This document shows positions 16,560-62,766 of a stretch of DNA of 64,000 nt, one piece after another. Within the stretch, counting starts at the first letter, position 1, and each line of letters starts with the position of its first letter. Under the pieces are notes generated by a model. The model worked only from the letters and a program-made list of their open reading frames with translations, had not been told where the DNA came from and ran no database searches. This DNA is from Candidatus Pacearchaeota archaeon. Its GTDB lineage: Archaea; Nanobdellota; Nanobdellia; Pacearchaeales; UBA284. Position numbers and translations under genes: made by a program. The stretch lies in contig JAPLYB010000040.1 in the NCBI GenBank assembly GCA_026395795.1, forward strand, positions 5,464 to 69,463. The letters are read 5' to 3'.

Positions 16560-19500
16560 CTAATCTAAGCCTTTTGGAATGATCACAGTGCAGTCTGTTT
16601 CTTTTCCAACACCATTTCCGCAGGTATCATAACACTTAACATACCATGGCTTATCATCCCAACTAGTTCTATGTTCAAAACTTCCAGTTGTTTCAAATTT
16701 TTCTGACTCAAGTGTTTTGTTTGCAGCAAAAATACAAGTGTTTATCTTTTTTCCAAACGAATAATGATATGAACAGATTGCTTCTTCATTTGTTTTCAGA
16801 ACAAGGTCGTTCCCTTCTTTGTAAAGTCTGATTATCTCAGGGGTATCATGATCTTCATAAACATCTAAGTTAATCTGTGCTAAAGCATTATTAAAAGCAG
16901 TATCGACACATTTGATGTAGATTGTTACAGTGCCTCGAACTGGGATATCTTCTATAACCGCATTTGTTGAATGAGTGTTTGCATATGTGATTGAAAACTT
17001 CTTCATTCCTTCATTAAACCCTTTAGTTGACCAATAACATGTCGCATTTCCACTATCAGAGCCATCTGAAGTAGAAACCATTAAAGGAACTGTTGCAGAT
17101 ACATTGCATCCAGATATCTGTGTGCCATTTTCTGGATTAATGCTGGATATTTTTAATTCTGGTGATGCAAAAAGTTTTAATAAATAACTTTGCTGCATTT
17201 CATTTCCAGCTGTATCATTGCATCTGATATAAATCGGATTGACAATTCCACTTGGTTCAGAGATCAGCTCTGTTAGATTTGTTTGACATTTCCATCCGCC
17301 CAATGTCAAGTTTGATTGACATTGAGTAACATTATTCATTATTCCATATTCCTGATCTTCTTTAGCCCATCTGCAGCTTGAGTTCTCATTAACATATATC
17401 GTCAATGGGACTTGAGTCACATTAAATGCAAATTTATTATAATACTCTCTATCAGTAGCTGTGACAACTGGTGGAGTTAAATCAGGACCAGCAGTAACAT
17501 TAAAGATAAATGTGTAAGCTGCAATGTTTGTGTTTCCATAAGCATTTGCACATCTCACATAAACATATGGTATTGATTGATGAATTGGAAACTGTTGTCG
17601 AAGTTCTTTTCTCAAAACCGTGCTTTCATATGGAAAGTCCATATCACTGAAATTTGCAGTCAACTGAATATCCCATTTACAAACAGCATCTTCACTCAAA
17701 TTGATTTTTATCATCAATTGAGTATAATCTGGAATTCCTTTTCCAGTTCCATTTGACATATCAATAAGAATTGTTGTTGGTGTTGTTCCGAGACTTGAGT
17801 TAAGATATACTACTTCATTATTCTGCACATTTCTTGCTTCAACTATAGTTATCCAAGGTGCTTTTCCAGTATTTTGTTGAGCAACACACCTGCCATCTGC
17901 AACAGAATAACTTGTTCCGCTTACATTTACACTATCAACAAACATACATGCCTGCCCTAAACTTTCGCATCTGTATTTTGAACATGGCCTGTTCGCATCA
18001 TTATTGCATAATTCACAATCCTCATTTCCTGCAGGAGGAAGTGAAGGATTACATTGCACTTCGTAATATTTCTCATCATATGAAGCATAATAAATTAATG
18101 CAGTAATAGCAGTAACTAAAACAGTAATTCCCAGCACAACCCAAAAAACAGGCGCAGCACCCGCGGCAAACATTATGATTGTGTAGCCTCCCGAAGCAAT
18201 CATACTCATTCCAGAAGCAATCAATGACCCTTGTTCAAATCCAGGTCCCCTATTGCCAGTAAAAGCTAAGATAATCATGACTATTCCTGCAGCAACCATA
18301 AGAGAACCCATGACTATTCCAGCAAGTTGAGCTGCCTTTGACATTCCAACTGCAGTTGCCTTAGTTGCAATTGTCGCCGCTCCTTCACCAGCAACTTTTG
18401 CATTAATGCCTACAACAGCTTCGTTAACTACAGCATACGGACTGTTTACAGTAACGATACCAGCAGTTTGCATACCAACACTACCAACATTCCCTCCAGC
18501 AATTTCAAAGCCCCCTGTAGCGAGCTGTTTTATGACAAGGGGATTATTTGCAGCAGCCTCAAAAAGCTGATTATTAAACATAACAACTCCTTGCTTGACA
18601 GTTCCAGAAATTATCTGTGTTCCAGTAGCTAATGAACCACTAGCAATCGTTGAACCAACAGTTAATGCAGTTCCGGCCCCTATTACAGCACCCTGTTGAA
18701 ATGTAGTACCTGCCGTGCTTGCAACAGCCGCTGGTGAAAATAATATTTTTCCAACGTGTGATAACTTAGTCGCTCCTGCTAAGACAGCTGTAAGAGCAAG
18801 ATATCCCGCAAAAGACGCACCCATTGTTGTAGCAAACCACCCAACATATCGTCCAAATTTTCCCCAGCCAGTGGCTTCTTTTATAGATGGTTCATTCCAA
18901 CTAGATTCTACATACCCTAAATACTTTCCATACGCTTCTGGCAATCCTAAATCTTTTTTCCCTCTTGTTTGATTTGTTGAATTTTCATCAGGTTTTTTAT
19001 CAAATTCTATAACACTAAATCCAGAAGTATTCTTTTTATTATAATTAAACCATGTTCCACAATCCCCTAAAGATTTACATCTATGAGCCATATAAGTATA
19101 AAATTCATCACTTAAGCATTCTGAATTAAATGTATCTGCTCCCCAAAAAGATTGTTTATATTGACAAATATAACTCCCCAGATTCCCGCAAATCTCTTCT
19201 TTATTGTCAAAACCATTTGTTCCTTCATCTAGTCCAGGAGGATACCTCGGCAAACAAATCGGCTTGATTGGCATCCCTTCTTTTGTTGTTCCGAATACGA
19301 CCCAGTTATTTATTTCAGAGAGACTGGTTGTAACATTCAAGAAAAGGTTTCCTTTACTGTCTTTATAATCTCTGACTTCATCCCACCAATAACAAAAAGT
19401 ATTAGAGTTGCAATCCTCTTTAGTAGATATGTTGCTGCATGATGCCCAAGAATTATCAACACAAACAGAATAACCTAATTGTCCAGATCCATCAGAATTA

Positions 19501-21509: not shown

Positions 21510-24500
21510 TTAACCAAGGTTTTGTGGAACAATAACTGTACAATCGTCATCAGGAGCTGCTCCATTTCCACAAGTATCATAACACTTAACATACCATGGC
21601 TTGTCTCTCCATGAAGTTACATGTTCTAATCCATCTGACGTTCCAAAAGGTTCTGCTCTGCGAATATCAGTAGCATTGAATTTGCATGAGTTTGTATTCT
21701 TATTAAAAGAACATAATGCATTACCATTTGTTTTAATAACAAGTTCACCGCCCTGTTGATAGAATCTGATTATTTCTGGGGCAGAATTATCCTCTTTTAC
21801 ATTGAATGCGGTGCTATTCCACACTTTGCTGCCTGTTGAATCTTCGCATGAGACATTGACATGATTTTCTCCAACAGAAACTTGAACTTTAGTTAAGTGT
21901 GTATTCGAGCCTGTTTCATCAAATTCTTTCCATCTAGTGCTTAAATCACTCTTCCAATAACATGTAGCAGCCCCTTCGTCACTTCCCCCGCTTGTTGTAA
22001 CATTGACTGTTATGTTATCATTCACATTGTCTGCACAAGCTTCGATTGTCAACCCGCTTACAGGTTCAACAGAATCTATGAGCAAGGTTGAAGGATAAAA
22101 TATTATAACATAAGACACAGGATTCACATTCCCAGCACTATCATTGCATTTTAGATAGAATATATTGGCCATCTCTCCTTTCAATGTCAAGTTTGTATAA
22201 CCATAATACAAAACTTCATCTGGTCCGCCAGTGGTTTCATTAACAATAAATTCATTAGTCATGGATTCATAAGGCAGATCACCAGGAGCAGACCATCTGC
22301 ATGTTGCATTTTCATCTAAGTAAACATAGAATGTCAAATTGCTTTCTCCGATTCCCATTGATAAATAGGACGCATTATCAGGAGAGGTCGCATTTAAGAA
22401 AGGAGGGAATCTATTGCTTCCCATTTCGAATTTCTTGATAGTAAAACGAATTTCTTGATCTGGTTGCATTCGATTAGTAGGTATAGCCTTATCTTGACAA
22501 GAATAAGTCAGAACTTCGTGAACATCATTCTCTATTGGAGCGTAACTTAATGTTTTTATGTGTTCTTTTGTGTATCGATTATCTGCCAACCAATATTGAG
22601 GATCAGTTAAATCAGGAGATGTTCCATCATCTGTGTAAGCGCATTGTGCGTCTTCACTCATTGTTAGATTTATTACAATTCTTTCAAAGTTTTCTACATC
22701 TACTCCATCTTCACAAGGAAGGTCTCTAATCCTTACATTCCCTTGTCCATCAATGATATCTTTAGTACATTCAATAACATATGGTGGAATTGGATCATTA
22801 ACAGTTCCATAGGTGCATTCAGCGATCTCGTCAAATACACAACCCTGCCCAAGTGCTTCACATCTAGGTTGGTTACATGGTCTAAAAGGATCTTCATTAC
22901 ATAAATGACAATCTGCTCCTCCCGCTGGTCTAACCCAAGAATCACAATAGAATGAATATAAAGAAACCCTGGCTGCTGTGCCTGCATTAGGGTCATGTGC
23001 ATTAATATATGGACTATTGAGCTCTGGATCATTAAAAAATTCAACACCAATCAACTTCCCAGGAAATCCAGAACCAGCTGTTTCTCTTTGATCTTTTTTT
23101 AATCTTGCACCAACAGAGCTTCTTGTCCCAGCCCAAGTATCATAAGCACCGCAACTTCCAAGTTGTCTGCATCTTTTAGCCATTGCAGTGCTCCATATAG
23201 CCTCTCTATCTAATGAATTTATACAACCTGGATTATTTGCACTTCCTTTAGAATTATCTGCTGGTTCGCACCCTGTATCTGAATTAGAGGTTATATGGGA
23301 GTTTCCTTCAAAGAATATTGAGGATATAGAATCTGGATCAGAATTCAATCCCCAAATAAGCGGGGCTTCAGCACCAAAACGATAACTATAAGTTAATTCA
23401 CTTTCCACACTTGAAGTCCACATGGAACCACCAAGATAGCATCGTGAGTGTTCTCCTTCAAGACAATGCCAAGCATCCCAACCCCATCCTGTTTCAGAAT
23501 AAGTAGCTAATCGGTCCTTTACAGCACTTCCATATTCAATTGTTCCAACAGAACAGTCTTGACCCGATCCATCTTCAGAATTCAAGGGAAATCTAGGCAA
23601 ACAAACATTGTTCGCGAATCCCCTTATATCTGTAAGCCAATTCCATTCAGCATTTTTATCATAAGAAGGATATAAAAAATCTTTTTCTGCTTGTAAAACT
23701 CTAAACTCAGTAAAGTTGTCAATCCACATGCAAAGAGGATTTGTAGTACAACTTAGTTTGTCAGTTAGTTTAGTGCAGTCTTCTGTAATAATATTGGGTA
23801 TTTCTGTAGCTCTCTTCCCATCCATCACACACATCGTGCTTCCATCTGATTTTAAAGGGAATATTTCAACAATATTATTTGGCCCACAAACATAAGAGAA
23901 ATCACTCCATCCAACTCCTGGTTTTTCTTCTTCATAAAGGACTTTAGAGATATTATAATCATATCCACACCAGGAGTCACTAAGGTTATATTGAATTTGT
24001 TTTCCACTATTTCTGCTATCATCATACAAACAACTAGCAAATTTGCAAGATGCATCATTCCCTTTCTGGCTGCAAGCATAACCATCACTGCATTGCATGT
24101 ACTCATCTTCTTGATTTCCGCAAGAATCAAACCAATAAACCTTGCTGGAATTATCTCCGCATCCTTTTCTAAAATGCTCTGAACATTTTGATGAACATCC
24201 GCCTTCTGTCACATTCGAACAAAATTTGCCCAAATGGAATTGTCCATCGTTGCTATTACAAGATTCTCTTGTTGTGTATGAACATTTGTCTTCACGATCA
24301 ATTACACAGCATCCTTTCTCACCCGAATTAAAAAAATCTTGACAAACATCTGGATCACTTGTATAAAATATTTCTGGGATAAATCCGTGCGATTCTGCTC
24401 CTTTTTCACATCCAATCTTAGAAGTTATATCCCATCCGTTATTCAATCCAGGATAAATACAACAAACCTTTTGACAGTTGGTTGCAGTGCACATTGCATC

Positions 24501-28219: not shown

Positions 28220-28657
28220 TCACTTAATTTCGCATATCTTTCTTAATTTAGAATACATCACATTCAAAAAATTTAAGACTTTTTTTGCGTATTCTTCTGT
28301 AAGCATCGTTCCATAATATTTTATTCCATTCCTATAATATCTTACCTCATCTAGAAAGCGTATTTCAAATTCAGAAAACCCTAAATTTTCTAGATAGGAA
28401 ACTTCTGCTTCATGTGAATTCCCTGCATTGTAACCATCTAAAAACATTTTTGCCCTTATAAGTTCAAGAATAACGTCATAGCAAGAATCAACAACAAAAT
28501 TTGAGCTCATTTTTTCTTGAGTAATTGTTTTGAGTGTGACCTCCAAAAATTCTTTCTTTTTATCAGCTTCTTTTACCAAACTTTTTGCCCTTGCCTTATT
28601 GGGCATTTGTTTTTTTACAATTCCATCTTTTAGTAATTCATCAAAATTTTTTATCAT
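28220..28657 (-). CDS. HEPN-domain protein (toxin partner of upstream MNT)
   Basis: 145 aa helical ORF overlapping the 3' end of the MNT gene by 4 nt; HEPN-like composition. Confidence 0.45.
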   Translation of the reverse strand: MIKNFDELLKDGIVKKQMPNKARAKSLVKEADKKKEFLEVTLKTITQEKMSSNFVVDSCYDVILELIRAKMFLDGYNAGNSHEAEVSYLENLGFSEFEIRFLDEVRYYRNGIKYYGTMLTEEYAKKVLNFLNVMYSKLRKICEIK

Positions 28658-29202
28658 AGTTCAATTGCTCCTTTAAGTGTGATTCCACTTAAAATATTCT
28701 CCTTTAAATTCTTTATGATGGTTTTGAACGAATCATAATAATTTAAAATAATCTCTCTTCCTAATAACTCCTCAAAATTTTTTAGATTAACCTTTTTTTC
28801 TTTTGCACCAATAATGGCTATATCTACATCAGAGTTTATAGTATCTTCTCCAAAAGCATAAGATCCAAATAAGATTATGGTTGCGGAATGAAAATTATCA
28901 TAAAAAAATTGCACGAGTCCTGATTCATATATCTGTTTAAAATTGTCTGCTCTTTTTAACCAAATTATACGCTGACTATCTCTGTTTAATTCTATTAGCC
29001 ATCTCTTAGACTCTTTATCTTTTTTTATTTTTAAGAAATTCTCTTTTTCAAGTAAAGGTAATGCCTTTGCTACTGCTGGTGGCGACACTTTCAAAGCCCG
29101 AGCTATGTCTCTAGCATTTAGAGATTTTCCCGCTTTAATGAAAAACAATCTCAAAATCTGTTGTTGAAGGATTGTTAACTTAGGTTTATATGTGTAAATC
29201 AT
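28654..29202 (-). CDS. minimal nucleotidyltransferase (MNT) with N-terminal HTH
   Basis: GSYAFGEDTINSDVDIAII nucleotidyltransferase motif (GS...D.D); N-terminal ARDIARALKVSPPAVAKAL HTH. Confidence 0.65.
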   Translation of the reverse strand: MIYTYKPKLTILQQQILRLFFIKAGKSLNARDIARALKVSPPAVAKALPLLEKENFLKIKKDKESKRWLIELNRDSQRIIWLKRADNFKQIYESGLVQFFYDNFHSATIILFGSYAFGEDTINSDVDIAIIGAKEKKVNLKNFEELLGREIILNYYDSFKTIIKNLKENILSGITLKGAIEL

Positions 29203-32148: not shown

Positions 32149-35100
32149 TTATATTATATTTATAATTCTTTTTTTCTTCTTGATAATAAAAAATGAATAA
32201 TACGCAGCAAGCAATCCCAAGACAATTAATATTTGCCAAGGTGCAAAGAAAGGCATCCTCTCAGTCTCAACTCCGCATCTCACACATGAAGTTTGATCTG
32301 GTAAAAAGCAAGTTCCAGGATTTGTTGCATTACTATATTGATAAATCACCATCTTTTTATTTGTTCCACATGCTCCGATGCTACATTCTTCAACTGTAAG
32401 ATTAAGTGTACACGCTTGTGAACCACCACTACCGCCTCCTGAAGACAAATTAAAGCTTAGTTGGCATGCATTTGCCTTCCAAATACAGTTACAATCGTAC
32501 GCACCAGAAGGTGCTCCTGGACATCCTGATCCGATTTCGCAGGCATCCTGAAGAGGAGATGTTGTTTTTTCACATGCACTTCTGTTAATATAATTACTAC
32601 AAGATATTGGTGTTCCGTTTACCGCAAAACAACGTTCACAATGATAAGAGTCATTAAGCGGGGGATTTCTTCCCAAATCCCAGAAGCAAGTGAATTGGTT
32701 GTTGTTACCTTGACAATTGCCAGGAGAATTGCTATGTAGCATATCATGACAAACATCAATCCCTCCCCCAGCACATTTATTATAGTTTTGTTTAGTTGGA
32801 TCTGTTATGCATGTTCCATGTGCAGAATTGCATGTACAACCATGACTATCACAAGCAAACATAAATCTGCCATGAGTCGCGCTCTCTGCTTCACAAAAAC
32901 GCCCAGTTCCGTCACCAATGCAAGATCCACAAAGAGTTCCATCATCACAAAAACAAGGTCGATTGCCAGAAGATTGATAAATTCCGTTGAAAATGTATAT
33001 TCCATTTCCAGTTAAGCTGAAACTTATGTTTCCAGGAGTTGTGTAATATGAAGCCACGTTTCTAAATTCTATAGTAAATACAGCAGGCCATCCAAAATTT
33101 CCATCATACTCATATTTTGTTTCATTATTTCCAGAGGCAACTATTCTAGATTCGTTCCAAATTCTTATAAGGGCATTTATGAATTCCCCCTCTTCGTTTC
33201 TTGCAAATACAATAATTGTTGCATTGTTCATAGGATCTTTTGTATAAATCCCAGTATAGTTTGTGTCTTCTATTAGATTAAGTAAGATATCAGATGGTTT
33301 ATACCAAGGTGAAGCATCTCCAAAAGAAATGTTTTCCCATCCAGACTCAGTCATTTTCCATTTAGGCGTTTTCCCCCAAGGAGTTCCATTTACAGAGACT
33401 GCCCCATTTATTGTAAAGTTTTCACACTTTCCATTTAGATTTTCATCTCCACAAGTGTATAAAGAAAGGTTAAACATAAACGGCACCGGTGCTCCTGCAA
33501 AAACAAATGTGCCAAAACTTCCAATCTTTTCTCCAATCTGATTTGCAGAATTTGTTCCATTATATAATGCCGCTTTTGTAACATTCATGTCTCTGCCAGC
33601 ACATTTCTGAGAAATAGACGAGATTGTCCAATTTGAATAGAAAGATCCCCCAAATCCAGGGCCATATGTTTTACGGATATAAGTAGAATTTCTTAAAGAT
33701 ACTTTACAAGGATCCCCATTGGGGTGTTCTGGATCTAGAATTTCAGTTGCATTCAATTCTATCTTATTGACTTTATCAGGAGTGCATGCAGTCATATTTT
33801 CAACAGAAATATTTATCGTGATATTATTCCCAACTTTACAACTTCCAGACTCACCAGTACAATATATATCCAGGATATTTGCATTTGTTATATTGCAGAC
33901 AAATCTAGATAATCCACAAGTCTTTGTACATCCAGTTGTTCCAGTATCATTCCAGCCATCTGGCTTGTCACAGAAGTTGTTGTCTCCTGTACTGCCGAAC
34001 CAATCAGGGAAATAATCACCTGAAAGAAAATCAATGTACGTATTATTGCAGATTTTATTATTATTTATTGTTGATTTTGAAAGTATAGAGCGTATTCCAC
34101 TGCTTCCAGCATTAATTATTGTGTTGTTCAGAATAGAATTATTCATTGCATTCCTTAGATAAATTCCTGAACCAAAACTATTATTGATGATATTGTTAAA
34201 TATAATATTATTGCTTCCACCAAGCAAGAGGCCATAATAAAAATGATTGATTATACAATTCTTAACAGTAGCATTTGATGTACCGTGAAAATCAATCGCT
34301 CCTCCTTGAGTATAGAATCCTCTAGTCCCATTAATAGTGTGTCCCTGACAATCAAAGACCTTGTTGTTAAAAGAATAATCAAGGCACCTTTCATCATTTG
34401 TGTTTATGTTGCTAGTTAAATTCACAGTGATGCAAGAGGGATCAGTCAAATTTTGTTTACAGCCAAGACAGCTATTGCAGATGCATATTCTTGGTTGCTG
34501 ATTATTTGTACATCCTGAAAGATCATAACTCAAACAATCAGAATGACAAGATAAACTCCCCCCCGTGTAACCGAAATCCAAACAGGTTTTTCCAGAAAGG
34601 TTTGATCCATCACAAATCTCTAGAGGTTCAATGATATTATTTCCGCATACCGGCCCAGGCAATGGAGAAACAATAAGAGTATTTTTCTCTGATTCAACAA
34701 GACTGCCTATTTCTCGTATTAACGCAACACAACTCCAGATATAACTCTCTTGTTGACCTGTTTTAGGCAGGATAACATTCTCAAAAACATTTTCCTCTAG
34801 ACCAGGAGAGATTATTCTTTCTGCATGTCTCCCTCCTCCCCAAGAACCATAAAGGGTAACATAAGTTGGAGGTTCATTTATTCCGTAAACATCGCATTTA
34901 AAGTCGGTTGGCGTTCCTTCCAAAACCCGAGTATTATTTTCTGGAGAGATTAATACCACGATTGGATTTGTTATTTCAACGCATGCCCCGTTTCGACAGA
35001 CTTTTTTAGTTCCACAATCTTCTTTATGGTTGCCCCCGCAACCATTACAATCGTAGACTTTGTTATTTTTGCAAGTTTTATAAGAATCTAATTTGCCAGT

Positions 35101-36111
35101 ACAATCAATAGCTTCTTTTGATAAACCAACAAACAAACATTCATTGCCCAGAGGAAAAAAAGTATTTTTTAAAGATGGATCAAAATTGCTGCCTGTCTCT
35201 GGATTAATTGAGCATCTATAGCCCTGAGAACCATATAATGAAAGACAAGAATTAAGTATGCGGGTTGGACTATACAAACATTGGAAATTGCCTTTACCAT
35301 TACAGTCTACTTTATTCTGATCACATCCATTGCCTGAAGAATCTTGCAATTGCATGCATGTGGCTCGATCAGCAACAAATGCCTTATCATAATCAATATA
35401 ATTGCCTTTTATGGTATTGCCCATAGCACCATCATCTCTTAAAACAATTCCCACTCCTCCCTGACCAGGAGTTTGTTTTATAACGTTGTAACTCACAATA
35501 TTGTTATCTGCTTTTGAACCCCAAAGATAAATTCCACGGTATTTTGCATTTATAATTAAATTCCGTATTATATTTGTGTTAACACAATCTACTAGAAAAA
35601 TTCCATTTTCTCCAGCATCGGTTATTTTGTTTTGAGTAATTAAATATCCCCCTTTCTCACAGGATGTAATTTGGATGCCGTGCATTTTAGAATCACTAAT
35701 AACATTATTTTCAATAGTCACATTTGGACTTTGCCCATTATTAATATAAATACCAACATCCCATCCCTGCAAGGAACAATTTTTAATGGCAACATCATTA
35801 GAATATATCCACACACCCGCATTTGACTTAGTATAACCCCCATATATGATAGAATGCCCTTGACAATCCAACATTCTTGGACAAGGGTCATACAGTGAAT
35901 GTACCGTAATCCCATAATCAACCTCGGATCCGCAATTTAAATTTCTAGTAAGGTAATTTCTCCCACAACCAAGTTCAAAATGGCATCCTGTAACTTCTGT
36001 ATCTGCTAACACAATCACAATATTGTTAATAAAAATCACAACCAATAATACAAAAACAAATGAAGCAAAAACAGATAATTTTGACGCCTTTTTCCTTTCC
36101 TCTTTTACCAT
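32149..36111 (-). CDS. giant (1320 aa) surface protein with right-handed parallel beta-helix (PbH1/NosD-like) repeats, Cys-rich modules and C-terminal TM anchor
   Basis: Repeated ...NN.I..N.I.....GI.. beta-helix-like repeats, N-terminal TM, C-terminal FAPWQILIVLGLLAAYYSFFII + KKKKR. Confidence 0.55.
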   Translation of the reverse strand: MVKEERKKASKLSVFASFVFVLLVVIFINNIVIVLADTEVTGCHFELGCGRNYLTRNLNCGSEVDYGITVHSLYDPCPRMLDCQGHSIIYGGYTKSNAGVWIYSNDVAIKNCSLQGWDVGIYINNGQSPNVTIENNVISDSKMHGIQITSCEKGGYLITQNKITDAGENGIFLVDCVNTNIIRNLIINAKYRGIYLWGSKADNNIVSYNVIKQTPGQGGVGIVLRDDGAMGNTIKGNYIDYDKAFVADRATCMQLQDSSGNGCDQNKVDCNGKGNFQCLYSPTRILNSCLSLYGSQGYRCSINPETGSNFDPSLKNTFFPLGNECLFVGLSKEAIDCTGKLDSYKTCKNNKVYDCNGCGGNHKEDCGTKKVCRNGACVEITNPIVVLISPENNTRVLEGTPTDFKCDVYGINEPPTYVTLYGSWGGGRHAERIISPGLEENVFENVILPKTGQQESYIWSCVALIREIGSLVESEKNTLIVSPLPGPVCGNNIIEPLEICDGSNLSGKTCLDFGYTGGSLSCHSDCLSYDLSGCTNNQQPRICICNSCLGCKQNLTDPSCITVNLTSNINTNDERCLDYSFNNKVFDCQGHTINGTRGFYTQGGAIDFHGTSNATVKNCIINHFYYGLLLGGSNNIIFNNIINNSFGSGIYLRNAMNNSILNNTIINAGSSGIRSILSKSTINNNKICNNTYIDFLSGDYFPDWFGSTGDNNFCDKPDGWNDTGTTGCTKTCGLSRFVCNITNANILDIYCTGESGSCKVGNNITINISVENMTACTPDKVNKIELNATEILDPEHPNGDPCKVSLRNSTYIRKTYGPGFGGSFYSNWTISSISQKCAGRDMNVTKAALYNGTNSANQIGEKIGSFGTFVFAGAPVPFMFNLSLYTCGDENLNGKCENFTINGAVSVNGTPWGKTPKWKMTESGWENISFGDASPWYKPSDILLNLIEDTNYTGIYTKDPMNNATIIVFARNEEGEFINALIRIWNESRIVASGNNETKYEYDGNFGWPAVFTIEFRNVASYYTTPGNISFSLTGNGIYIFNGIYQSSGNRPCFCDDGTLCGSCIGDGTGRFCEAESATHGRFMFACDSHGCTCNSAHGTCITDPTKQNYNKCAGGGIDVCHDMLHSNSPGNCQGNNNQFTCFWDLGRNPPLNDSYHCERCFAVNGTPISCSNYINRSACEKTTSPLQDACEIGSGCPGAPSGAYDCNCIWKANACQLSFNLSSGGGSGGSQACTLNLTVEECSIGACGTNKKMVIYQYSNATNPGTCFLPDQTSCVRCGVETERMPFFAPWQILIVLGLLAAYYSFFIIKKKKRIINII

Positions 36112-36151
36112 CTTTCTTATAAGAATAAAGGGTTTATAAAAATGACGAAAA
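36098..36151. repeat. 54-bp direct repeat copy 1 (promoter + first 5 codons of giant gene 32149..36111)
   Basis: Identical 54-mer tcctcttttaccatctttcttataagaataaagggtttataaaaatgacgaaaa also at 37444..37497. Confidence 0.9.
36128..36141 (-). promoter_or_regulatory. archaeal BRE/TATA-like element (TTTATAAACCCT on coding strand) ~25-30 nt upstream of giant-gene ATG
   Basis: Same motif recurs upstream of ORFs at 37357, 53781 and 57149. Confidence 0.4.
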
Positions 36152-36252
36152 TCAAAAGATTTTCGGACATGCAGAAAAATCTCATTTTTCTAGCATTTAT
36201 ATTTTTTACCAATTAACAGAAATTAATATGACAAAAATCTCGCACAATGAAT

Positions 36253-36504
36253 TCACACTTCCCAAACAGTTTCTTTCTCATTTATCTTTTCAAAAACTTT
36301 TTTTATATCTACTATTTCTATAGTCTTTTTACCATTGATAGCTGCCTCTTTTGCCAAAAGTTCGATTATTTTAATTATGAATTCATTAAAATACTTGTTT
36401 AAAGATTCTGCTGCTTTTTTCTTTATTCGTATATCTTTCTTATGAATCCTGCTTAAAACATTCCTTTTAATTAACAGATTATTTAAATTTTCTTTATTTT
36501 TCAT
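36253..36504 (-). CDS. small hypothetical protein (83 aa) in HEPN/MNT cassette
   Basis: ORF immediately downstream of the MNT gene on the same strand. Confidence 0.3.
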   Translation of the reverse strand: MKNKENLNNLLIKRNVLSRIHKKDIRIKKKAAESLNKYFNEFIIKIIELLAKEAAINGKKTIEIVDIKKVFEKINEKETVWEV

Positions 36505-36510
36505 TTTTAA

Positions 36511-37065
36511 TTAATGCATTAGAATGTAACTTTTCTTATATTTTATTTTAAGATTATTAAAAAATTCTTCGAATAAACTATCTGCAAAAATAGGAACAGT
36601 AAATGCTTGATTAACAATCCACTCGCCATTGTTTTTTTTAACCATTCCAGGTTTTCCCTTTTTTCCTCTTAAAGCATTAACAACTTTGACTTTATTTGAA
36701 GCAGATAAAGAAGATAAACTATAAGAGAATAAAACTCTGCTTGAAAATTTTAAATTTTCAGACAAAGATTTTTTGTTTTTTATGCTATATCCCTCTCTTA
36801 AAAGAGCATTTATTAATAAATGCGGATTAATAAAAAAGTCTTTTGCAGTAACAACGCTAATATGGAATTGATCAATCTTCTGTATATTATCCAGTATATC
36901 CCTTGTAGGAGAATGATAAAACAAGACAGCAAGATCTATATCTCTTGGAAGAGATTTGCCTTTTACAGCAGATCCAAACACAATTAAGTCTATTACTTCT
37001 TTATTACTAAGTAAAAAACCCAATTTATTTTTTATTTTTGATATAATCTCTGATTTCATAAGCAT
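36511..37065 (-). CDS. minimal nucleotidyltransferase (MNT)
   Basis: LIVFGSAVKGKSLPRDIDLAVL motif (GS...D.D). Confidence 0.6.
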   Translation of the reverse strand: MLMKSEIISKIKNKLGFLLSNKEVIDLIVFGSAVKGKSLPRDIDLAVLFYHSPTRDILDNIQKIDQFHISVVTAKDFFINPHLLINALLREGYSIKNKKSLSENLKFSSRVLFSYSLSSLSASNKVKVVNALRGKKGKPGMVKKNNGEWIVNQAFTVPIFADSLFEEFFNNLKIKYKKSYILMH

Positions 37066-37357
37066 ATTTTTTCAGATTTAAACCATCTGTTTTATTTAAT
37101 TTTTGATTATATGACTGGGTGTAGGTTTTGAATAAACTAGAAATTTTGTTATAAATTTCTTTAAAATGAGTATTCAATAAAGAAAATCGATCTACATGAT
37201 TTTTAGGCAAAATTTTAATTTCTTTATAAATTAAGTAATCACAAAAAATAACAATTGCTTTAAAAAAATCAGAAACAGCAACATTAAATCTGTTTTTTTC
37301 TAAATTTTCTTCACCAGATTTTAAAAATTCTTCAGCAGTGTTTAATAAATCTTCCAT
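37025..37357 (-). CDS. HEPN-domain protein
   Basis: 110 aa helical protein upstream-overlapping the MNT gene; NVAVSDFFKAIVIFCDYLIY region HEPN-like. Confidence 0.45.
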   Translation of the reverse strand: MEDLLNTAEEFLKSGEENLEKNRFNVAVSDFFKAIVIFCDYLIYKEIKILPKNHVDRFSLLNTHFKEIYNKISSLFKTYTQSYNQKLNKTDGLNLKKYAYEIRDYIKNKK

Positions 37358-37443
37358 TAATATATTAATCTATTTTGCTATTTATAAACTTTTCGGTTAA
37401 TGCATTAATCGGATAGGTCTAAGTGCTCACTCGCTTCTTCCGA

Positions 37444-37497
37444 TCCTCTTTTACCATCTTTCTTATAAGAATAAAGGGTTTATAAAAATGACGAAAA
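37444..37497. repeat. 54-bp direct repeat copy 2, followed by a degenerate remnant of the giant-gene N-terminus (MVKEDRKKRVST*)
   Basis: Identical to 36098..36151; the minus-strand reading downstream continues with diverged homology to MVKEERKKASKLS. Confidence 0.9.
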
Positions 37498-37532
37498 CTT
37501 AGATGGGTTTATGATTGATTAAGTTATGCAAA

Positions 37533-38147
37533 TCATACAAACAATTTTATTCCAGAGATAAGCTCTACCCAGTTACAAGAATTGACTAAGACTATATGAT
37601 CTTTTAAAATTTGTTTTGCAAATCCATCTTCTTTACGAAGTGCATCAATAAAATTTTCCTTAGTAACAAACCTTATTGAAGGCTTATTCTTAATAGTTAT
37701 AAAACAGTTTTCAACTGCTTTTTCAACTTTTTTTCTGGTTTGAGTTTCTGCAATAATCAAAAGATCCAAATCACTTTCTTTGGTTTCGCTATATCTTGAA
37801 AAAGAACCAAAAACTAGTGCACAAGAGATATAATCTGAAACTTCATTTTCAAATTGAAAAAAAGGGCCTTTTAATTCTTTGTGTTTTTCTAAAAACTTTA
37901 ATCTTTTTTCTTCTTCAATTAAAGAAAAAATAATCTTTCCAGTCACACTAAACTCCGGTTTTATGATTCTTAATGGAGGTTCAATTTTTTGAGAGATTAT
38001 TTTTGCATCTAATAATTCATTGATGTATCTATACCCTATTTTTTGAGACACTTTTGCTTTTTTCAGCAAATCAGATATTCTGATATTAAAACTTTCATAA
38101 ACAATCTTCAAAAGATTATACTTCGCTTTTGAAATTGGGAATATCAT
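37533..38147 (-). CDS. nucleotidyltransferase (MNT) with N-terminal HTH
   Basis: LVFGSFSRYSETKESDLDLLII motif; N-terminal HTH-like KIGYRYINELLDAKII. Confidence 0.6.
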   Translation of the reverse strand: MIFPISKAKYNLLKIVYESFNIRISDLLKKAKVSQKIGYRYINELLDAKIISQKIEPPLRIIKPEFSVTGKIIFSLIEEEKRLKFLEKHKELKGPFFQFENEVSDYISCALVFGSFSRYSETKESDLDLLIIAETQTRKKVEKAVENCFITIKNKPSIRFVTKENFIDALRKEDGFAKQILKDHIVLVNSCNWVELISGIKLFV

Positions 38148-38653
38148 TCAAAACACCTCTTTTCTACAAAAGAAACAAATTCTTTTGTAAAATTATATAT
38201 CTTTGAAGCATCTTCTTTAGATAATTGTTTCCATTTTGTTACATCATATTGACCAATTTTTCTTAAAGAATAAGAAATTTCAAAACCGGTAAAATCAGAA
38301 AACTTTGTGCTTATCTTTCTAAGATTTTCATAAATATTTTGTGGAACTAAATCAAAATTTTTTAATGCTAAAATAGCACAAAAATGATCTTTAGAATAAA
38401 AACCTTGGAATTTAATTAGCAAAGCATTTATTGCATGATGAATGGCGTAATACGCTTTTATCACAACCCAATCCCAAGCTTCATTTTCATAATCTACCAA
38501 AATTTGAGATAGATCACTTTTAGCTTTTTCCAAATGAAGATTAAATTCTTCTTTTGAAACAAGGATATACTTTTTTAATTTTCTACAATTGCAAAATCCC
38601 TTGCTAATCGACTCTTTATTTTTTGGAAGTGTCGAAATAATATTATCTATCAT
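38144..38653 (-). CDS. HEPN-domain protein
   Basis: AYYAIHHAINALL HEPN-like helix; overlaps the downstream MNT gene start by 4 nt. Confidence 0.5.
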   Translation of the reverse strand: MIDNIISTLPKNKESISKGFCNCRKLKKYILVSKEEFNLHLEKAKSDLSQILVDYENEAWDWVVIKAYYAIHHAINALLIKFQGFYSKDHFCAILALKNFDLVPQNIYENLRKISTKFSDFTGFEISYSLRKIGQYDVTKWKQLSKEDASKIYNFTKEFVSFVEKRCFE

Positions 38654-38725
38654 GGATAATTGTGTCTATTGCGATATATAAATCTATCTATCTCAATCTA
38701 AACTTCTCTGAAGAATAAAAAATAA

Positions 38726-43909: not shown

Positions 43910-44032
43910 GGACCCGTAGCTCAGTTTGGATAGAGCACTTGCCTTCTAAAGGCTCTCTTTAAAAAAGAGACCCTGGAGAGAAATCTCAAAAAAGACAGCA
44001 AGGGGTCGCAGGTTCAAATCCTGTCGGGCCCG
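43910..44032 (+). tRNA. tRNA-Arg (anticodon TCT) with ~48-nt intron at canonical position 37/38
   Basis: Manual fold: acceptor GGACCCG/CGGGCCC (one A:C at 3:70), D-arm GCTC...GAGC, anticodon stem CTTGC/GCAAG around loop CTTCTAA, T-arm GCAGG-TTCAAAT-CCTGT, discriminator G; 48 nt between the anticodon loop and the 3' anticodon-stem strand. Confidence 0.7.
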
Positions 44033-60778: not shown

Positions 60779-60902
60779 AAATCCTTAAAAAATAGAAAAG
60801 TTATAAATGTTTCCAGAAAAGATCGCGCCCCGCAGTAAAGCCAAAAATAATTAAACTTGGTTCTCTAGGATTTTGCGTAGCAAAATCCTAATGGAAGATT
60901 TT

Positions 60903-60958
60903 ACTTTAACTTTACTTAAAGTTACTTTAATTTACTAAAAGGAGTTTAAGTAAGAGTA
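60903..60958. repeat. ~56-bp direct repeat copy A (ctttaactttacttaaagttactttaa core) upstream of AbiE-like operon
   Basis: 27-nt perfect core plus ggag-tttaagtaa tail shared with 62703..62766. Confidence 0.8.
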
Positions 60959-61114: not shown

Positions 61115-61744
61115 ATGAGCTATAAATTACTAATTAAGAAATTGATGATTGATAAAAAGAAGATTATCACGAGGGAAGAATTAAAAGAATATTGCAAAAA
61201 TTTTAAGATGTCTTATTCTTCTGTAATTGGGTATCTTCTCAGAAATAGGTATGCAGAAAGGATACTAAGAGGAATCTTTTATCTTAAAAGCATAGAAGAA
61301 AGAAAACTTAACAAATCAGACATGAGCTTCTACGAAGCTATCAAAGAAGCTCTAAGGATAAAGGGCGTTAAAAACTGGTATTTTGGCTTAGAAAGTGCTA
61401 TTAAATTAAACAACCTGACTCACGAATACTTTGCCATAGACTTTATTATTTCAGACAAAATAAAAAGAAAGAATACAATTGAGATTTTAGGGCATAAAGT
61501 CAAGTTTCTGACTATTAAAAAAGAGCTAATTAAGTTTGGCATTGAAAAGGGAAAAATCCCTTATTCAGATATTGAAAAAACAATTTTGGATATAGTTTAC
61601 TTGGGGATTTATCGGGGTTATTCGGAATCCACAATAAGAAACGACATAATTGATTATATTGATCTGTGCGACAAGGCAAAGCTTATTAATTATGCAAAAC
61701 ATTATCCTAAGACAATACTAAAGTTCATTCCAAAGACAAAATGA
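61115..61744 (+). CDS. AbiEi-like antitoxin/transcriptional regulator (putative)
   Basis: 209-aa ORF overlapping the start of the AbiEii-like NTase gene by 4 nt; typical AbiEi position. Confidence 0.4.
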   Translation: MSYKLLIKKLMIDKKKIITREELKEYCKNFKMSYSSVIGYLLRNRYAERILRGIFYLKSIEERKLNKSDMSFYEAIKEALRIKGVKNWYFGLESAIKLNNLTHEYFAIDFIISDKIKRKNTIEILGHKVKFLTIKKELIKFGIEKGKIPYSDIEKTILDIVYLGIYRGYSESTIRNDIIDYIDLCDKAKLINYAKHYPKTILKFIPKTK

Positions 61745-62679
61745 TAAGAAAAGAAGCTACTGGATTTATAAAAGAAAAGACAGGAATAAACAAAAGAGAA
61801 TTTATTGAAAAAGACCTTATTCTAAGCCAGCTTCTCTTTCATTTATCAAAAGAAAAATATTTCTTTGATAACTATGCTTTCAAAGGCGGAACTTGTCTAA
61901 TAAAATGTTATCTTGGATATTACAGATTCTCAGAAGACCTTGATTTTACTTACATAAATCAAAAAGAACTTGAAGGAAAAAGCATGAATCAAATGAGGAA
62001 GTTGGTTTCTGATAAAATAGACAAGGTTGCAGAGATACTTGAAAAAATCGCAAAACCCCTTGACTTGAGATTCAAAGCAGACAAACAGGATAAAGATCAC
62101 TTCCAATTTGGCGGAAGCAATGCATTTGTGACTTTTAAGCTCTGGTATAAATCAACCGAATCAGATAAAGAGAATTTCATTAAACTTCAAATCAATTACA
62201 TTGAAAAGCTTAATTATGCGATTAAAGAAATAAAAGCAAAAACTCTGCTATTGAAAGATTTTGAAAAGGAATTTTCTTCATTGTTTCCAGAAGAATTTGA
62301 ATTTTTAAAGCCCGCAAAAATCAAAACTTATGACATAAAAGAAGTTTTAATCGAAAAAATAAGGGCAATCCTGACAAGAAGGGGTGTTAAAGCAAGAGAT
62401 TTTATTGATGTCTATAAAATAACCAAATTAGAAAATCTTAAACTTGAAGATTTTAAGAAAGAAATAATTGACAAAATAAAAGCCATGCTAAAATTTGATA
62501 AATATCAAACTAACCTAGATAAAAAACAGGAAACTAACTTTTCAGCGGATATAGACAAAGAAAAAATAGTAGCTGAAGAAGAAAAGATTCTCCTTGTGCC
62601 TATCCCAGAAGATTTTGCAAAATTTTTGTCTGAATTTAAGGTTTTTCTGAATGAAATTATTTTGTCTTTAAAGAAATAA
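61741..62679 (+). CDS. AbiEii/DUF1814-family nucleotidyltransferase toxin
   Basis: FKGGTCLIKCY...RFSEDLDFTY matches the FKGGTAL...DIDF signature of AbiEii nucleotidyltransferases. Confidence 0.65.
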   Translation: MIRKEATGFIKEKTGINKREFIEKDLILSQLLFHLSKEKYFFDNYAFKGGTCLIKCYLGYYRFSEDLDFTYINQKELEGKSMNQMRKLVSDKIDKVAEILEKIAKPLDLRFKADKQDKDHFQFGGSNAFVTFKLWYKSTESDKENFIKLQINYIEKLNYAIKEIKAKTLLLKDFEKEFSSLFPEEFEFLKPAKIKTYDIKEVLIEKIRAILTRRGVKARDFIDVYKITKLENLKLEDFKKEIIDKIKAMLKFDKYQTNLDKKQETNFSADIDKEKIVAEEEKILLVPIPEDFAKFLSEFKVFLNEIILSLKK

Positions 62680-62702
62680 GAAGGAAGTGCGCCCAGTTTT
62701 CT

Positions 62703-62766
62703 TTAACTTTACTTAAAGTTACTTTAACTTACTTTAACTTACTTAAGGAGATTTAAGTAAACCCCA
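62703..62766. repeat. ~64-bp direct repeat copy B (same core, one extra ttaacttact unit) downstream of AbiE-like operon
   Basis: See copy A; internal short tandem actttaaCtt units. Confidence 0.8.

Follow-up and report, generated by a model that had tools for sequence, protein, structure and literature searches.

It is a long-standing question how small toxin-antitoxin (TA)-like cassettes that have no recombinase of their own spread within prokaryotic genomes and from one genome to another, and such cassettes are termed "mobile" chiefly on the basis of phyletic patterns. In the window, by which we mean the whole 64-kb stretch of DNA analysed, from a Pacearchaeota archaeon, a cassette with HEPN and MNT genes is bracketed by two copies of the promoter and start of a surface-protein gene. 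This raises the question whether the cassette was inserted into that gene, with duplication of the target, and if so when and by which route. All features discussed below are on the minus strand.

The product of the surface gene is a right-handed beta-helix protein of 1320 aa, either secreted or anchored (32149..36111; Pfam Beta_helix/NosD; MCX6742442.1), and an earlier note on this DNA had claimed a perfect 54-bp duplication that includes its promoter and gene start. Both points were borne out: positions 36098-36151 and 37444-37497 are identical at 54/54 nt, and the TATA box and the first 4.7 codons are present in both copies. When the copies were aligned together with their flanks the match extended gene-ward to 61 of 64 nt (36088-36151 versus 37434-37497), with all three mismatches in the final 10 nt, and beyond these 64 nt the similarity is not significant. 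The promoter-distal edge is abrupt: one of the copies has ttttga ahead of TTTTCGTCA, the other tctaag. Each copy has the layout TTTTCGTCA-TTTTTATAAA-CCCTTTATTCTTATAAGAAAG-ATG GTA AAA GAG GA, made up of 9 nt, the TATA box, a spacer of 21 nt and the initial codons. Two copies of the repeat are present in the 64-kb window and none is expected; exactly two occurrences were likewise found for its 52-nt core and for a 21-nt sub-core, for which shuffles predict 0.00 and 0.01, respectively.

Copy 1 (36088..36151, perfect core 36098-36151) holds the working promoter (TATA TTTTTATAAA) and, behind the 21-nt spacer, the initial codons, before it runs on into the 1320-aa ORF (ATG at 36111); its promoter core is identical at 34 of 35 positions to the promoter of the orthologous gene in the closest relative, L001. 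The upstream neighbours of the surface gene are HEPN2 (169 aa) and a wHTH-MNT2 (204 aa), which together occupy 37533..38653. Copy 2 (37434..37497, perfect core 37444-37497), the duplicate promoter and start, is situated 36 nt downstream of the MNT2 stop codon, which is the position of the surface-gene promoter in relatives, and it opens a 12-codon ORF (37419..37457) that reads MVKEDRKKRVST followed by a stop codon and may have remained from the ancestral start of the gene or may be due to chance. Copy 2 is separated from the left end of the cassette by a G+C-rich junction filler of 23 nt (cgagtgagcacttagacctatcc, 37411..37433), and a 101-nt tail (36152..36252) extends from the histone-fold stop codon to copy 1, with a hairpin at its end (36165..36146) in which the first bases of copy 1 form the 3' arm.

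Anatomy of the cassette

The limits of the cassette proper, approximately 1.16 kb (36253..37410), were set by homology with L001 (37410..36255) and L004 (37408..36272). The HEPN gene, the MNT gene and the small ORF that had been reported from the 1.3 kb between the repeats were all confirmed, the small ORF having 83 codons' worth of protein (83 aa). A putative operator, palindrome 1 (TTAATGCATTAA, 37397..37408), is present immediately 5' of the cassette's own BRE/TATA (tttataaa, 37388..37381) and is kept at the same place in most of the ~45 cassette loci. Palindrome 2 (TTAATATATTAA, 37357..37368) overlaps the HEPN1 start codon while palindrome 3 (TAATGCATTAA, 36521..36511) contains the MNT1 stop codon.

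HEPN1 (110 aa, 37025..37357) matches PF05168 with 23.3 bits (cut-off 22). In an alignment of 44 HEPN1 sequences, PKNH54-x2-R57F is among the positions that are at least 90% conserved and the Rx4-6H RNase motif is absent among these positions; R57...H64 of the window HEPN1 is not conserved, the family consensus being Y at position 64. MNT1 (184 aa, 36511..37065; 182 aa in the NCBI call, MCX6742444.1) consists of a minimal nucleotidyltransferase N-domain and an alpha/beta C-domain of ~85 aa. It scores above the cut-off for both PF18765 and PF01909, FGSAVKGK...DIDLAV (the GSx(n)DxD motif) is invariant in the MNT1 alignment (A3), the profile matches HI0073, and the N-domain model matches the MNT antitoxin structures 8xeo, 7bxo, 1no5 and 7aer (Foldseek). 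The two genes overlap by 41 nt and their pairing is conserved in ~45 genomes.

As judged from the family profile and Pfam, the third conserved cassette gene (36253..36504, 83 aa) is a genuine histone fold. Over positions 11-74 the family profile (A4) matches the PDB entries 1f1e (E-value 2e-12), 1ku5 (HPhA, 6e-8) and 1a7w (2e-5), with 1e-5 for HMfA/B, and Pfam CBFD_NFYB_HMF matches 20 of 30 family members (best E 1e-9); the window protein alone is below the cut-off of this Pfam model (18.9 versus 21.4 bits). No integrase or transposase domain was detected with Pfam in the 1.3 kb between the repeats, and with regard to transposase types (DDE, HUH, Cas1, serine/tyrosine) the cassette proteins match HEPN, NTase and histone fold only. 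A pair of terminal inverted repeats was not found at the cassette ends.

Related loci and recurrence across DPANN archaea

The earlier note had proposed insertion into the 5' end of the surface gene with regeneration of its start, and comparison with related loci supports this. Three relatives (L009, L097 and L100) have the order lipase(-)/TP_methylase/.../HEPN2-MNT2, large surface protein, PKD protein; here the cassette is absent and HEPN2-MNT2 is joined directly, through a homologous promoter/leader, to the gene for a surface protein of 1100-1238 aa. This promoter/leader is homologous to the repeat over 49 nt at 78%. The three loci are only 67-78% identical to the window at the nucleotide level, and a true empty site in a close relative of high identity was not found. 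HEPN2-MNT2 is syntenic in four distant relatives, and is the ancestral neighbour of the surface gene, outside the inserted unit and not paralogous to HEPN1/MNT1.

Both the window and L001 carry HEPN1-MNT1-histone fold (HF), and in L001 the order is TP_methylase-HEPN1-MNT1-HF-promoter-surface genes, with one promoter copy only. At the nucleotide level the two are 91% identical in TP_methylase, 81.6% in the cassette and 82% in the downstream region. Over 52 nt the TP_methylase/HEPN1 spacer of L001 is homologous to the promoter of HEPN2 in L009 and L005 (0 of 2000 shuffles reach the score), with the homology terminating after ...CATGAT, before TAATGC, which suggests that L001 lost HEPN2-MNT2 and copy 2 by deletion. 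The spacer between HF and promoter is 101 nt in the window and ~31 nt in L001, and the two cannot be aligned.

A scan of species-representative DPANN genomes gave 80 loci, and the unit HEPN (110 aa)-MNT (~180 aa)-HF (~84 aa) is conserved in ~45 of these, distributed over Pace-, Woese- and Nanoarchaeota. Its neighbours differ everywhere, the flanking genes being unrelated. With a threshold above the 99th percentile of the cross-locus control, locus-specific flanking direct repeats were called at 11 of the 38 testable loci (159, 72, 71, 71, 64, ~50, 33, 29, 27, 21/18 and 18 nt) and none at the remaining 27; the maximum in the inverted-orientation control was 29. No two genomes have the same repeat sequence, and no homology connects the flanks of L039 with those of L058. 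At each locus that was resolved, an intact gene end includes one of the copies, whereas the other, a decaying duplicate, is without an ORF. At six loci (L050, L051, L039, L058, L019 and L034) 3-7 nt at the right end of the cassette are shared with the downstream copy, which begins within 0-7 nt of the cassette at most other loci versus 101 nt after it in the window. Around HEPN2-MNT2 pairs and a third MNT pair no flanking repeats were detected (z ≤ 2.1), no integrase was seen near the inspected cassette loci, and no cassette relatives were found in IMG/VR viral contigs. Since different, locally derived duplications are present in ~10 other DPANN genomes, the cassette resembles a mobile unit that duplicates a long stretch of target on insertion and for which no recombinase can be recognised.

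What emerges is a HEPN-MNT-histone unit of three genes that is conserved among DPANN archaea, whose genomes are reduced. The suggestion that it is a toxin-antitoxin cassette is doubtful, because the HEPN1 family is without a conserved Rx4-6H, the third gene encodes a histone fold and conservation of the unit is wide; its breadth of occurrence would speak for a function beyond addiction alone.

Origin of the duplication

We consider it likely that the ~1.16-kb cassette was inserted a few codons into the surface gene with duplication of the target, as one case of a recurrent process. Before the insertion the surface gene would have been directly downstream of HEPN2-MNT2, and the inserted piece would have been a self-contained expression cassette with an operator-flanked promoter, HEPN1, MNT1 and the histone-fold protein. 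The target duplicated would have been at least 54 nt, probably 64 nt, comprising promoter, leader and first codons, so that promoter and start of the surface gene remain intact in copy 1, and copy 2 would be left as a dead copy upstream of the cassette. The same cassette would have been inserted at many unrelated DPANN sites, each with a target-derived duplication of 18-159 nt. From the anatomy of the junctions we infer that insertion may have been host-mediated and microhomology-guided, rather than the work of a transposase or integrase, either by a replicative template switch that re-entered the target upstream of its exit or by fill-in of a widely staggered break. Copy 2 may still fire, giving read-through transcription into the cassette, and homologous recombination between the repeats could allow precise excision and a return to the cassette-free arrangement.

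With respect to age, copy 2 had been interpreted as an older remnant and not a fresh duplication, on the basis of a diverged echo of the real N-terminus downstream of it. Both the echo and the age are doubtful. The echo amounts to 7/10 in-register nt (binomial P ~0.01) and RKK within the generically K/R-rich n-region of a signal peptide; the likeness of MVKEDRKKRVST to the start of the L009 surface protein (MVKKDRKRVLFL) is not significant. The 33 nt after the perfect block have ~50% G+C (17/33) and G/C-rich codons, atypical in a genome of roughly 30% G+C, and they are significantly similar to none of the gene starts compared. Moreover, the leader is short in both window copies, a derived state not shared by L001, L009 and L097, so the copies appear to have been homogenised or duplicated recently; the 54-nt identity would not be old but the result of recent gene conversion or of a young event. 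The insertion of the cassette itself probably predates the split between the window and L001 lineages (~82% nucleotide identity), and the perfect 54 nt might then stem from later gene conversion or pop-out/pop-in recombination. The single promoter copy of L001 fits this explanation only if that genome suffered the deletion, and the unalignable HF-to-promoter spacers count against it, as independent insertions would explain them more easily. Further points against insertion with target duplication are the want of a true empty site at high identity, the 101 nt between cassette and downstream copy in the window, the 27 loci at which no flanking repeat was called, and the adapter-like string at the junction described below.

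Alternatively, the cassette may have entered this exact position only after the window lineage had parted from that of L001, where it would have been acquired independently or re-positioned, with loss of HEPN2-MNT2. The 54 nt would be a fresh target duplication, with the 7/10 matches beyond it representing junction microhomology or chance. Such a young event is in keeping with the perfection of the repeat, with a shared derived leader that then needs no gene conversion, with the unalignable spacers, and with the right end of the L001 "deletion", which equals the left end of the cassette at palindrome 1 as for an insertion junction. However, the cassettes of the window and L001 have diverged to the same extent as the flanking genome (81.6% versus 82% identity) and both are immediately 5' of the same promoter; for both sister lineages to be hit independently within ~100 nt would be unparsimonious unless the site is a hotspot. 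We regard a young insertion as rather unlikely.

It is very improbable that the inserted segment was instead HEPN2-MNT2 plus copy 2, acquired through recombination with a strain having HEPN2-MNT2 before the surface gene, such that two alleles became stacked. The excess of the window over L001 does correspond exactly to HEPN2-MNT2, copy 2 and the filler (38698..37411), and HEPN2-MNT2 is 85%/78% similar to its counterparts in the distant L005/L009 as opposed to only 69%/68% for TP_methylase; yet the HEPN2 promoter and ATGAT persist at the L001 deletion scar, the pair occupies a syntenic position in the four distant relatives mentioned above, and elsewhere the duplications flank HEPN1-MNT1-HF and not HEPN2-MNT2. 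An assembly artefact, in which two population variants, or the chromosome and a small circle, were joined as a chimera at a shared promoter, likewise has very little probability. The source is a MAG, the perfect length of 54 equals k-1 for assemblers with k = 55, and an Illumina-adapter-like 10-nt sequence (GATCGGAAGA, 37445..37436; filler and the 10 nt before it) lies at the junction, exactly at the end of the perfect repeat, and occurs once in the window with 0.06 expected. The adapter likeness, however, does not go beyond 10 nt plus an indel, the sequences at the two junctions of copy 2 are unique and must exist in the reads, imperfect repeats of other lengths surround the cassette in ten other assemblies from other assemblers, and comparative genomics predicts a promoter remnant at the position of copy 2. 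Finally, site-specific integration, with the 54-64 nt as attL/attR and the integrase and other genes lost or acting in trans, is hardly credible: although archaeal integrative elements leave direct repeats of 40-60 bp overlapping the ends of genes, with the target gene preserved, and L001 has an integrase-like gene adjoining a tRNA ~7 kb off, the 1.3 kb is without an integrase, the repeats at other loci (18-159 nt) are without a common core, the L001 integrase region has no window counterpart and IMG/VR viral contigs hold no relative of the cassette.

The HEPN-MNT-histone-fold unit could even be an autonomous recombinase-less mobile element of DPANN archaea, with an undescribed insertion route, long variable duplications (18-159 nt) and possible involvement of its own proteins, a proposal that we put forward as speculative and on balance doubtful. 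The nucleotidyltransferase, the HEPN nuclease-like protein and the histone-fold protein, the last as a binder on the three TTAATGCATTAA palindromes, might take part, and survival would be preferential at gene termini because the duplication regenerates promoter, start or stop. Irrespective of this, the junctions are readable here: the target duplications measure 18-159 nt, one end shows microhomology, and one copy always rescues a gene terminus. Such junctions provide a testable model for insertion; such cassettes can land within genes without killing them. Annotation calls for some caution, as a duplicated promoter and start yields a spurious mini-ORF and a second putative promoter feeding the cassette.

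Comparison with known systems

The overlapping HEPN and MNT genes are like those of HEPN-MNT (HepT-MntA, type VII) TA systems, e.g. Shewanella SO_3166/SO_3165 and H. influenzae HI0074/HI0073. In contrast to these, the HEPN1 family of the cassette has no conserved Rx4-6H, MNT1 has the extra ~85-aa C-domain, the histone-fold gene is an obligate third member, and, from presence counts, the cassette appears to be conserved widely in Pace-, Woese- and Nanoarchaeota and not patchily distributed. HEPN-MNT modules have been described as horizontally mobile, and a DNA-binding "third component" was predicted for MNT-HEPN systems in 2009 (PMC2701414); the histone-fold gene may be this component. As compared by description only, cls.004259 (NEQ050) is similar in being an MNT/HEPN gene conserved across DPANN; it is reported as unusually conserved there and in a "house-keeping context", not in defence islands, and, unlike the separate genes of the cassette, as an MNT-HEPN fusion (Makarova, Wolf and Koonin 2019, PMC6393860). 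Neither a histone-fold partner nor flanking duplications are mentioned for cls.004259 in that paper.

The third-gene profile aligns with archaeal histones (HMfA/B, HPhA and M. kandleri 1f1e) over the entire fold, including the GRKT(L/I)xxEDI loop and the alpha-3 signature; the cassette protein differs in being encoded by the last gene of a HEPN-MNT operon and in its K/N-rich N-terminal extension of ~15 aa. It may serve either as the principal chromatin protein of the host or as a regulator specific to the cassette.

A direct target duplication that brackets the insert and differs per site is a feature shared with the target site duplications (TSDs) of IS elements and casposons and with the variable ones of LINE-type retroposition. 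Prokaryotic transposons, though, have short TSDs of fixed length (2-15 bp), a transposase or Cas1, and terminal repeats, whereas the duplications here are 18-159 nt and variable, transposase, RT and TIR are absent, and there is microhomology at the right junction. The cassette carries its own promoter and is therefore not a simple mRNA retrocopy. As in elements integrated at gene-end att sites (3' or 5' ends of tRNA or protein genes), the repeats span a gene terminus, so that insertion leaves the target gene intact, and excision between them should be possible; the cassette differs in having no integrase, no att core common to the sites and no fixed repeat length. Compared with integron gene cassettes, the palindromes lie within the unit and not at the 3' end. 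Target duplications of arbitrary length together with a few nt of microhomology are shared with microhomology-mediated template switching of the FoSTeS/MMBIR type and with homology-facilitated illegitimate recombination during transformation. Such processes copy arbitrary segments, whereas here one unit with nearly constant ends is present at many sites, suggesting a defined donor molecule or strong selection for survival.

The repeat and the genes around it

Alignment of the repeat copies at 36098-36151 (copy 1) and 37444-37497 (copy 2) revealed 54 nt without a mismatch. The repeat reaches 64 nt on the gene-ward side, with three mismatches that are all within the last 10 nt, and its boundary on the promoter-distal side is sharp. 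Read on the minus strand, each copy carries, in order, TTTTCGTCA, a TATA box (TTTTTATAAA), a 21-nt spacer and ATG GTA AAA GAG GA; the gene for the 1320-aa beta-helix surface protein begins in copy 1 and the short reading MVKEDRKKRVST (followed by a stop codon) in copy 2. The 64-kb window holds these two copies only, with none expected, and the earlier note's claim of an identical 54-mer with a promoter and a gene start was borne out exactly. The centre of the TATA box lies ≈25 nt upstream of the ATG and, given the usual archaeal spacing between TATA box and transcription start, this predicts that mRNA of the surface gene from this promoter would be leaderless or nearly so. Neither genome_contigs nor metagenome_contigs contains a 35-nt core of the repeat; a 20-nt promoter core matched L013 (on a contig shared with locus L002) and three unrelated chance matches (L014-L016). 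A bacterial sigma-70 scan of the window was uninformative, the consensus being bacterial and the host archaeal.

Between the copies are the three genes also noted earlier as a HEPN gene, an MNT gene and a small ORF, i.e. HEPN1 (110 aa, PF05168), MNT1 (184 aa, PF18765/PF01909) and an 83-aa ORF, referred to here as the cassette (36253..37410). Upstream of copy 2 is a second pair (37533..38653), HEPN2 (169 aa) and wHTH-MNT2 (204 aa), unrelated to HEPN1/MNT1. Window proteins match MCX6742442, -44 and -46, from a 72-kb contig of a Candidatus Pacearchaeota MAG, at 100% identity; exact-protein look-ups of window proteins and P0001 gave no record, and no close orthologue of the 1320-aa protein was found in the protein database (next match 30% identity over 14% of the query). 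Both HEPN/MNT units are part of an island of 21-29% G+C (36150-38700; adjoining genes 33-40%). The minus strand can form a hairpin of 8 bp, CGAAAATC-tttt-GATTTTCG, at 36146-36165, with a T-run after it. The opening bases of copy 1 make up the 3' arm, copy 2 is without such a partner, and the hairpin may act as terminator of the cassette operon.

Elsewhere in the window, a third pair at 28220-29202 (minus strand), a wHTH(MarR-like)-MNT of 182 aa and a 145-aa partner without Pfam match, sits just 3' of both surface-protein genes, a place kept in L001, the closest related locus. A 94-nt direct repeat (16612-16705 and 21562-21655, 76% identity) at the 3' ends of the 1352-aa and 1115-aa ORFs probably represents paralogous C-terminal anchors of two further large surface proteins. 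The AT-rich motif TTTACTTTAACTTTACTTAAAGTTACTTTAA is present at 60900-60936 and, partly in tandem, at 62697-62743 (95% identity, 1.8 kb apart), and the two sites flank ORFs at 61115-62679. Finally, a 123-nt tRNA gene at 43910-44032 (plus strand; Rfam, 51 bits) presumably contains an intron, since it was missed by ARAGORN; in L001 the homologous tRNA region adjoins ≈6 kb missing from the window, with genes for a reverse transcriptase, an integrase-like protein and a DEAD helicase, which is probably an integrated element.

The locus in related genomes

Relatives were retrieved via homologues of MNT1 and MNT2. L001 and the window agree at 91% of nucleotides in TP_methylase, 81.6% in the cassette and 82% in the 4.4 kb downstream, and the locus in L001 runs TP_methylase - HEPN1 - MNT1 - 84-aa ORF - promoter - surface genes - wHTH-MNT - 145 aa. 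This order matches that of the window except that HEPN2-MNT2 and copy 2 are missing from L001, which at face value would make these the extra DNA; the spacer in L001 and the cassette-free relatives reverse this reading. Specifically, the 69-nt TP_methylase/HEPN1 spacer of L001 shares homology with the HEPN2 promoter region in both L009 and L005 (52 nt, ≈75%, a score reached by 0 of 2000 shuffles) and ends ...CATGAT/TAATGCATTAACC, that is, the HEPN2 start codon joined to the left end of the cassette with GAT as microhomology. Because the HEPN2 promoter and start codon are fused to the cassette, L001 appears to be a deletion derivative.

Three more distant relatives, L009 (TP_methylase ≈67% identical at the nucleotide level), L097 and L100, keep the wider synteny, with HEPN2-MNT2 followed by a surface protein (1226, 1238 and 1100 aa, respectively) and a PKD protein, and none of the three has the cassette at this locus. 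Here HEPN2-MNT2 directly precedes the surface gene, with one repeat-like promoter: the DNA that separates MNT2 from the surface gene shows homology to the repeat (AAACCC...AGATGGTAAAA.AGGA, 49 nt, 78%), and the N-termini of the surface proteins (MVKKDRKRVLFL, MEKKERKGTTRI) resemble both readings in the window. This homology suggests that copy 2 occupies the ancestral promoter position, directly 3' of MNT2, and supports the HEPN1-MNT1-ORF unit as the inserted segment. The core reading of the earlier note, a cassette inserted in the 5' end of a surface-protein gene, is hence supported by the three cassette-free loci together with the deletion scar in L001. Among the relatives retrieved no empty site of high identity was found. 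In L005 (7495-9855) HEPN2-MNT2 is 85% identical to the window at the nucleotide level, TP_methylase only 69%, and an MFS transporter follows the pair instead of surface genes; HEPN2-MNT2 may itself have been exchanged horizontally.

With respect to age, both copies in the window have a common short leader (TTATAAGAAAGATGG) while L001, L009 and L097 keep a longer one (...AGAGGAAAAA(A)GATGG), which suggests that the two copies are most closely related to each other. Either gene conversion or pop-out/pop-in recombination homogenised them in the window lineage, or the insertion is younger than it appears and took place in the window lineage after the split from L001. Between the window and L001 the cassette has diverged as much as its flanks and, with the deletion scar, this would most simply make the stacked arrangement older than the split. 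As to homogenisation, a perfect core with mismatches clustered at the edge is also seen at L051 and L050, two other cassette loci, and in all three cases this fits conversion tracts.

It had also been argued that MVKEDRKKRVST proves copy 2 to be an old remnant. This argument is weak: 7 of 10 in-register nucleotides agree (P ≈0.01), n-regions are generically K/R-rich, and the 33 nt after copy 2 are ≈50% G+C (17/33) with codons atypical for the genome. These 33 nt have no significant similarity to the gene starts of the window, L009 or L001. A reading of the 101-nt tail that precedes copy 1 as a decayed 3' end of MNT2, left by a longer original duplication, was not supported: no comparison was significant (best, L005, P ≈0.09). 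The surface-gene leaders of L001 (10838-10890), L009 (8630-8690) and L097 (≈6640-6700) have an inverted repeat and an SD-like CCTCTgtttttAGAGGaaaaaagATG; AGAGG is lost from both promoter copies in the window, which probably makes the mRNA leaderless.

The cassette and its flanks in other archaea

Species-representative genomes were searched with the MNT1 family alignment, which yielded 80 loci in Pace-, Woese- and Nanoarchaeota. The same three genes in the same order and of the same sizes (110, ≈180 and ≈84 aa) are present at approximately 45 of these, next to neighbours that vary in identity, size and orientation. Homology between cassettes begins 0-30 nt 5' of a 12-nt palindrome (TTAATGCATTAA), itself upstream of the cassette BRE/TATA, and runs as far as the third gene's stop codon; a scan of viral contigs gave no cassette relatives. 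Palindromes of the type TTAAT(G/A)(C/T)ATTAA are located upstream of the cassette TATA box (37397-37408), over the HEPN1 ATG (37357-37368) and in the MNT1 stop (36511-36521), where the site encodes L-M/I-H-stop. They are the only matches to TAATRYATTAA in the 64-kb window (0.72 expected) and the three sites are kept at the same positions in most of L017-L061. The palindromes look like operators bracketing the promoter, and the conserved C-terminus of MNT1 may be constrained by the DNA site.

The third gene encodes a genuine histone fold: the profile of its family matched the archaeal histones 1f1e (2e-12), HPhA (6e-8) and HMfA/B (≈1e-5) in PDB, and Pfam CBFD_NFYB_HMF matched 20 of 30 family members. 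In the MNT1 model (pLDDT 88) the N-terminal ≈100 residues match MNT antitoxins; PDB profile and Foldseek searches gave no identification of the C-terminal alpha/beta domain. HEPN1 has a conserved PKNH-x2-RF and no conserved Rx4-6H, and because of the latter the toxin-antitoxin label used earlier is not justified by the tests made; the cassette might just as well encode a split nucleotidyltransferase plus a partner that binds DNA.

For 38 testable loci the DNA upstream of each cassette was aligned with its downstream DNA, with upstream of locus i versus downstream of locus j as control and the 99th percentile as cut-off; the scores of L017 and L032 were left out as slicing artefacts of truncated upstream flanks. 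Direct repeats exceeded the cut-off at 11 loci: L051 (159 nt, 147/159), L039 (72 nt, 69/72), L050 (71 nt, 65/71), L058 (71 nt, 57/73), the window (64 nt), L019 (≈50 nt), L043 (33 nt), L018 (29 nt), L049 (27 nt), L024/L046 (one site; 21 and 18 nt) and L034 (18 nt). The inverted orientation gave nothing (maximum score 29), and no such repeats flank the HEPN2-MNT2 pairs of five genomes or the third MNT pair of the window. A 30-nt repeat at L004 (77% identity) was discarded, being indistinguishable from generic BRE/TATA similarity and reaching the 95th percentile only.

The repeat sequence is unique to each genome; L039 and L058, for example, have the cassette in common and not the flanks. At the readable loci one copy is in an intact gene terminus and the other is without ORF, the repeat being the 3' end of a convergent gene (L051; L024/L046), the 3' end of the upstream gene (L058; L018) or, in the window, the promoter and 5' end of a gene. 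With locus-specific repeats at 11 of 38 loci and one copy at an intact gene end, the 54-nt repeat of the window is one case of a general pattern. The cassette thus appears to duplicate a long and variable stretch of its target on insertion, and the surviving insertions are those whose duplication restores the interrupted gene end. The final 3-7 nt of the cassette (TAA, TTAA, GTATGA, GTTT, TAA and GATTTAA) are also part of the downstream copy in six events, a microhomology of the cassette's end with the beginning of the duplicated target.

Creation of the window repeat during assembly would fit its perfect length, 54 being k-1 of a k = 55 assembler, and GATCGGAAGA, identical to the first 10 nt of Illumina adapter read-through sequence, which is found once in the window (37436-37445, minus strand; 0.06 expected), at the very end of the perfect repeat. 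An artefact is nevertheless unlikely because the adapter similarity fails beyond 10 nt, copy 2 has unique sequence at either junction and ten other assemblies carry comparable imperfect repeats. At the GATCGGAAGA site adapter similarity continues weakly with one indel (GCG..GTG..AG), and the 33-nt stretch after copy 2 opens with GATCGGA and closes with TCCGAT, an inverted pair. A tandem duplication that took in a HEPN-MNT-promoter unit was rejected, since the two HEPN-MNT pairs are not paralogous.

Possible routes of insertion and known systems

Repeat and gene content argue against transposition and site-specific integration: no transposase, integrase or reverse transcriptase is present among the cassette proteins, no terminal inverted repeats were found at the cassette ends, and the repeat has neither a conserved core nor a fixed length. 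The junctions combine a variable duplication, microhomology on the right and 0-30 nt of unmatched filler on the left, the anatomy expected of a microhomology-guided template switch. In such a switch the nascent strand would depart from the target, copy a defined donor molecule to its end and re-anneal upstream of the departure point; alternatively, the cassette would be captured in a widely staggered break and fill-in would leave the same anatomy. Judging from the junctions, we tentatively rank this template-switch or staggered-break family first among the models, at somewhat less than an even chance. Campbell-type re-integration of a popped-out circle (cassette and one repeat) could subsequently spread the cassette within a species, and would keep the repeats homogeneous as well.

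Mobile TA-like cassettes and target duplications are already known. A full-text literature search gave no description of a HEPN-MNT-histone-fold cassette with 18-159-nt target duplications and no recombinase, and no report of long duplications flanking HEPN-MNT modules; we see a minority chance that the cassette represents a new mode of mobility. Makarova et al. reported an unusually conserved DPANN MNT/HEPN gene in house-keeping contexts (PMC6393860), and the same authors had predicted that MNT-HEPN possibly needs a DNA-binding third component (PMC2701414).
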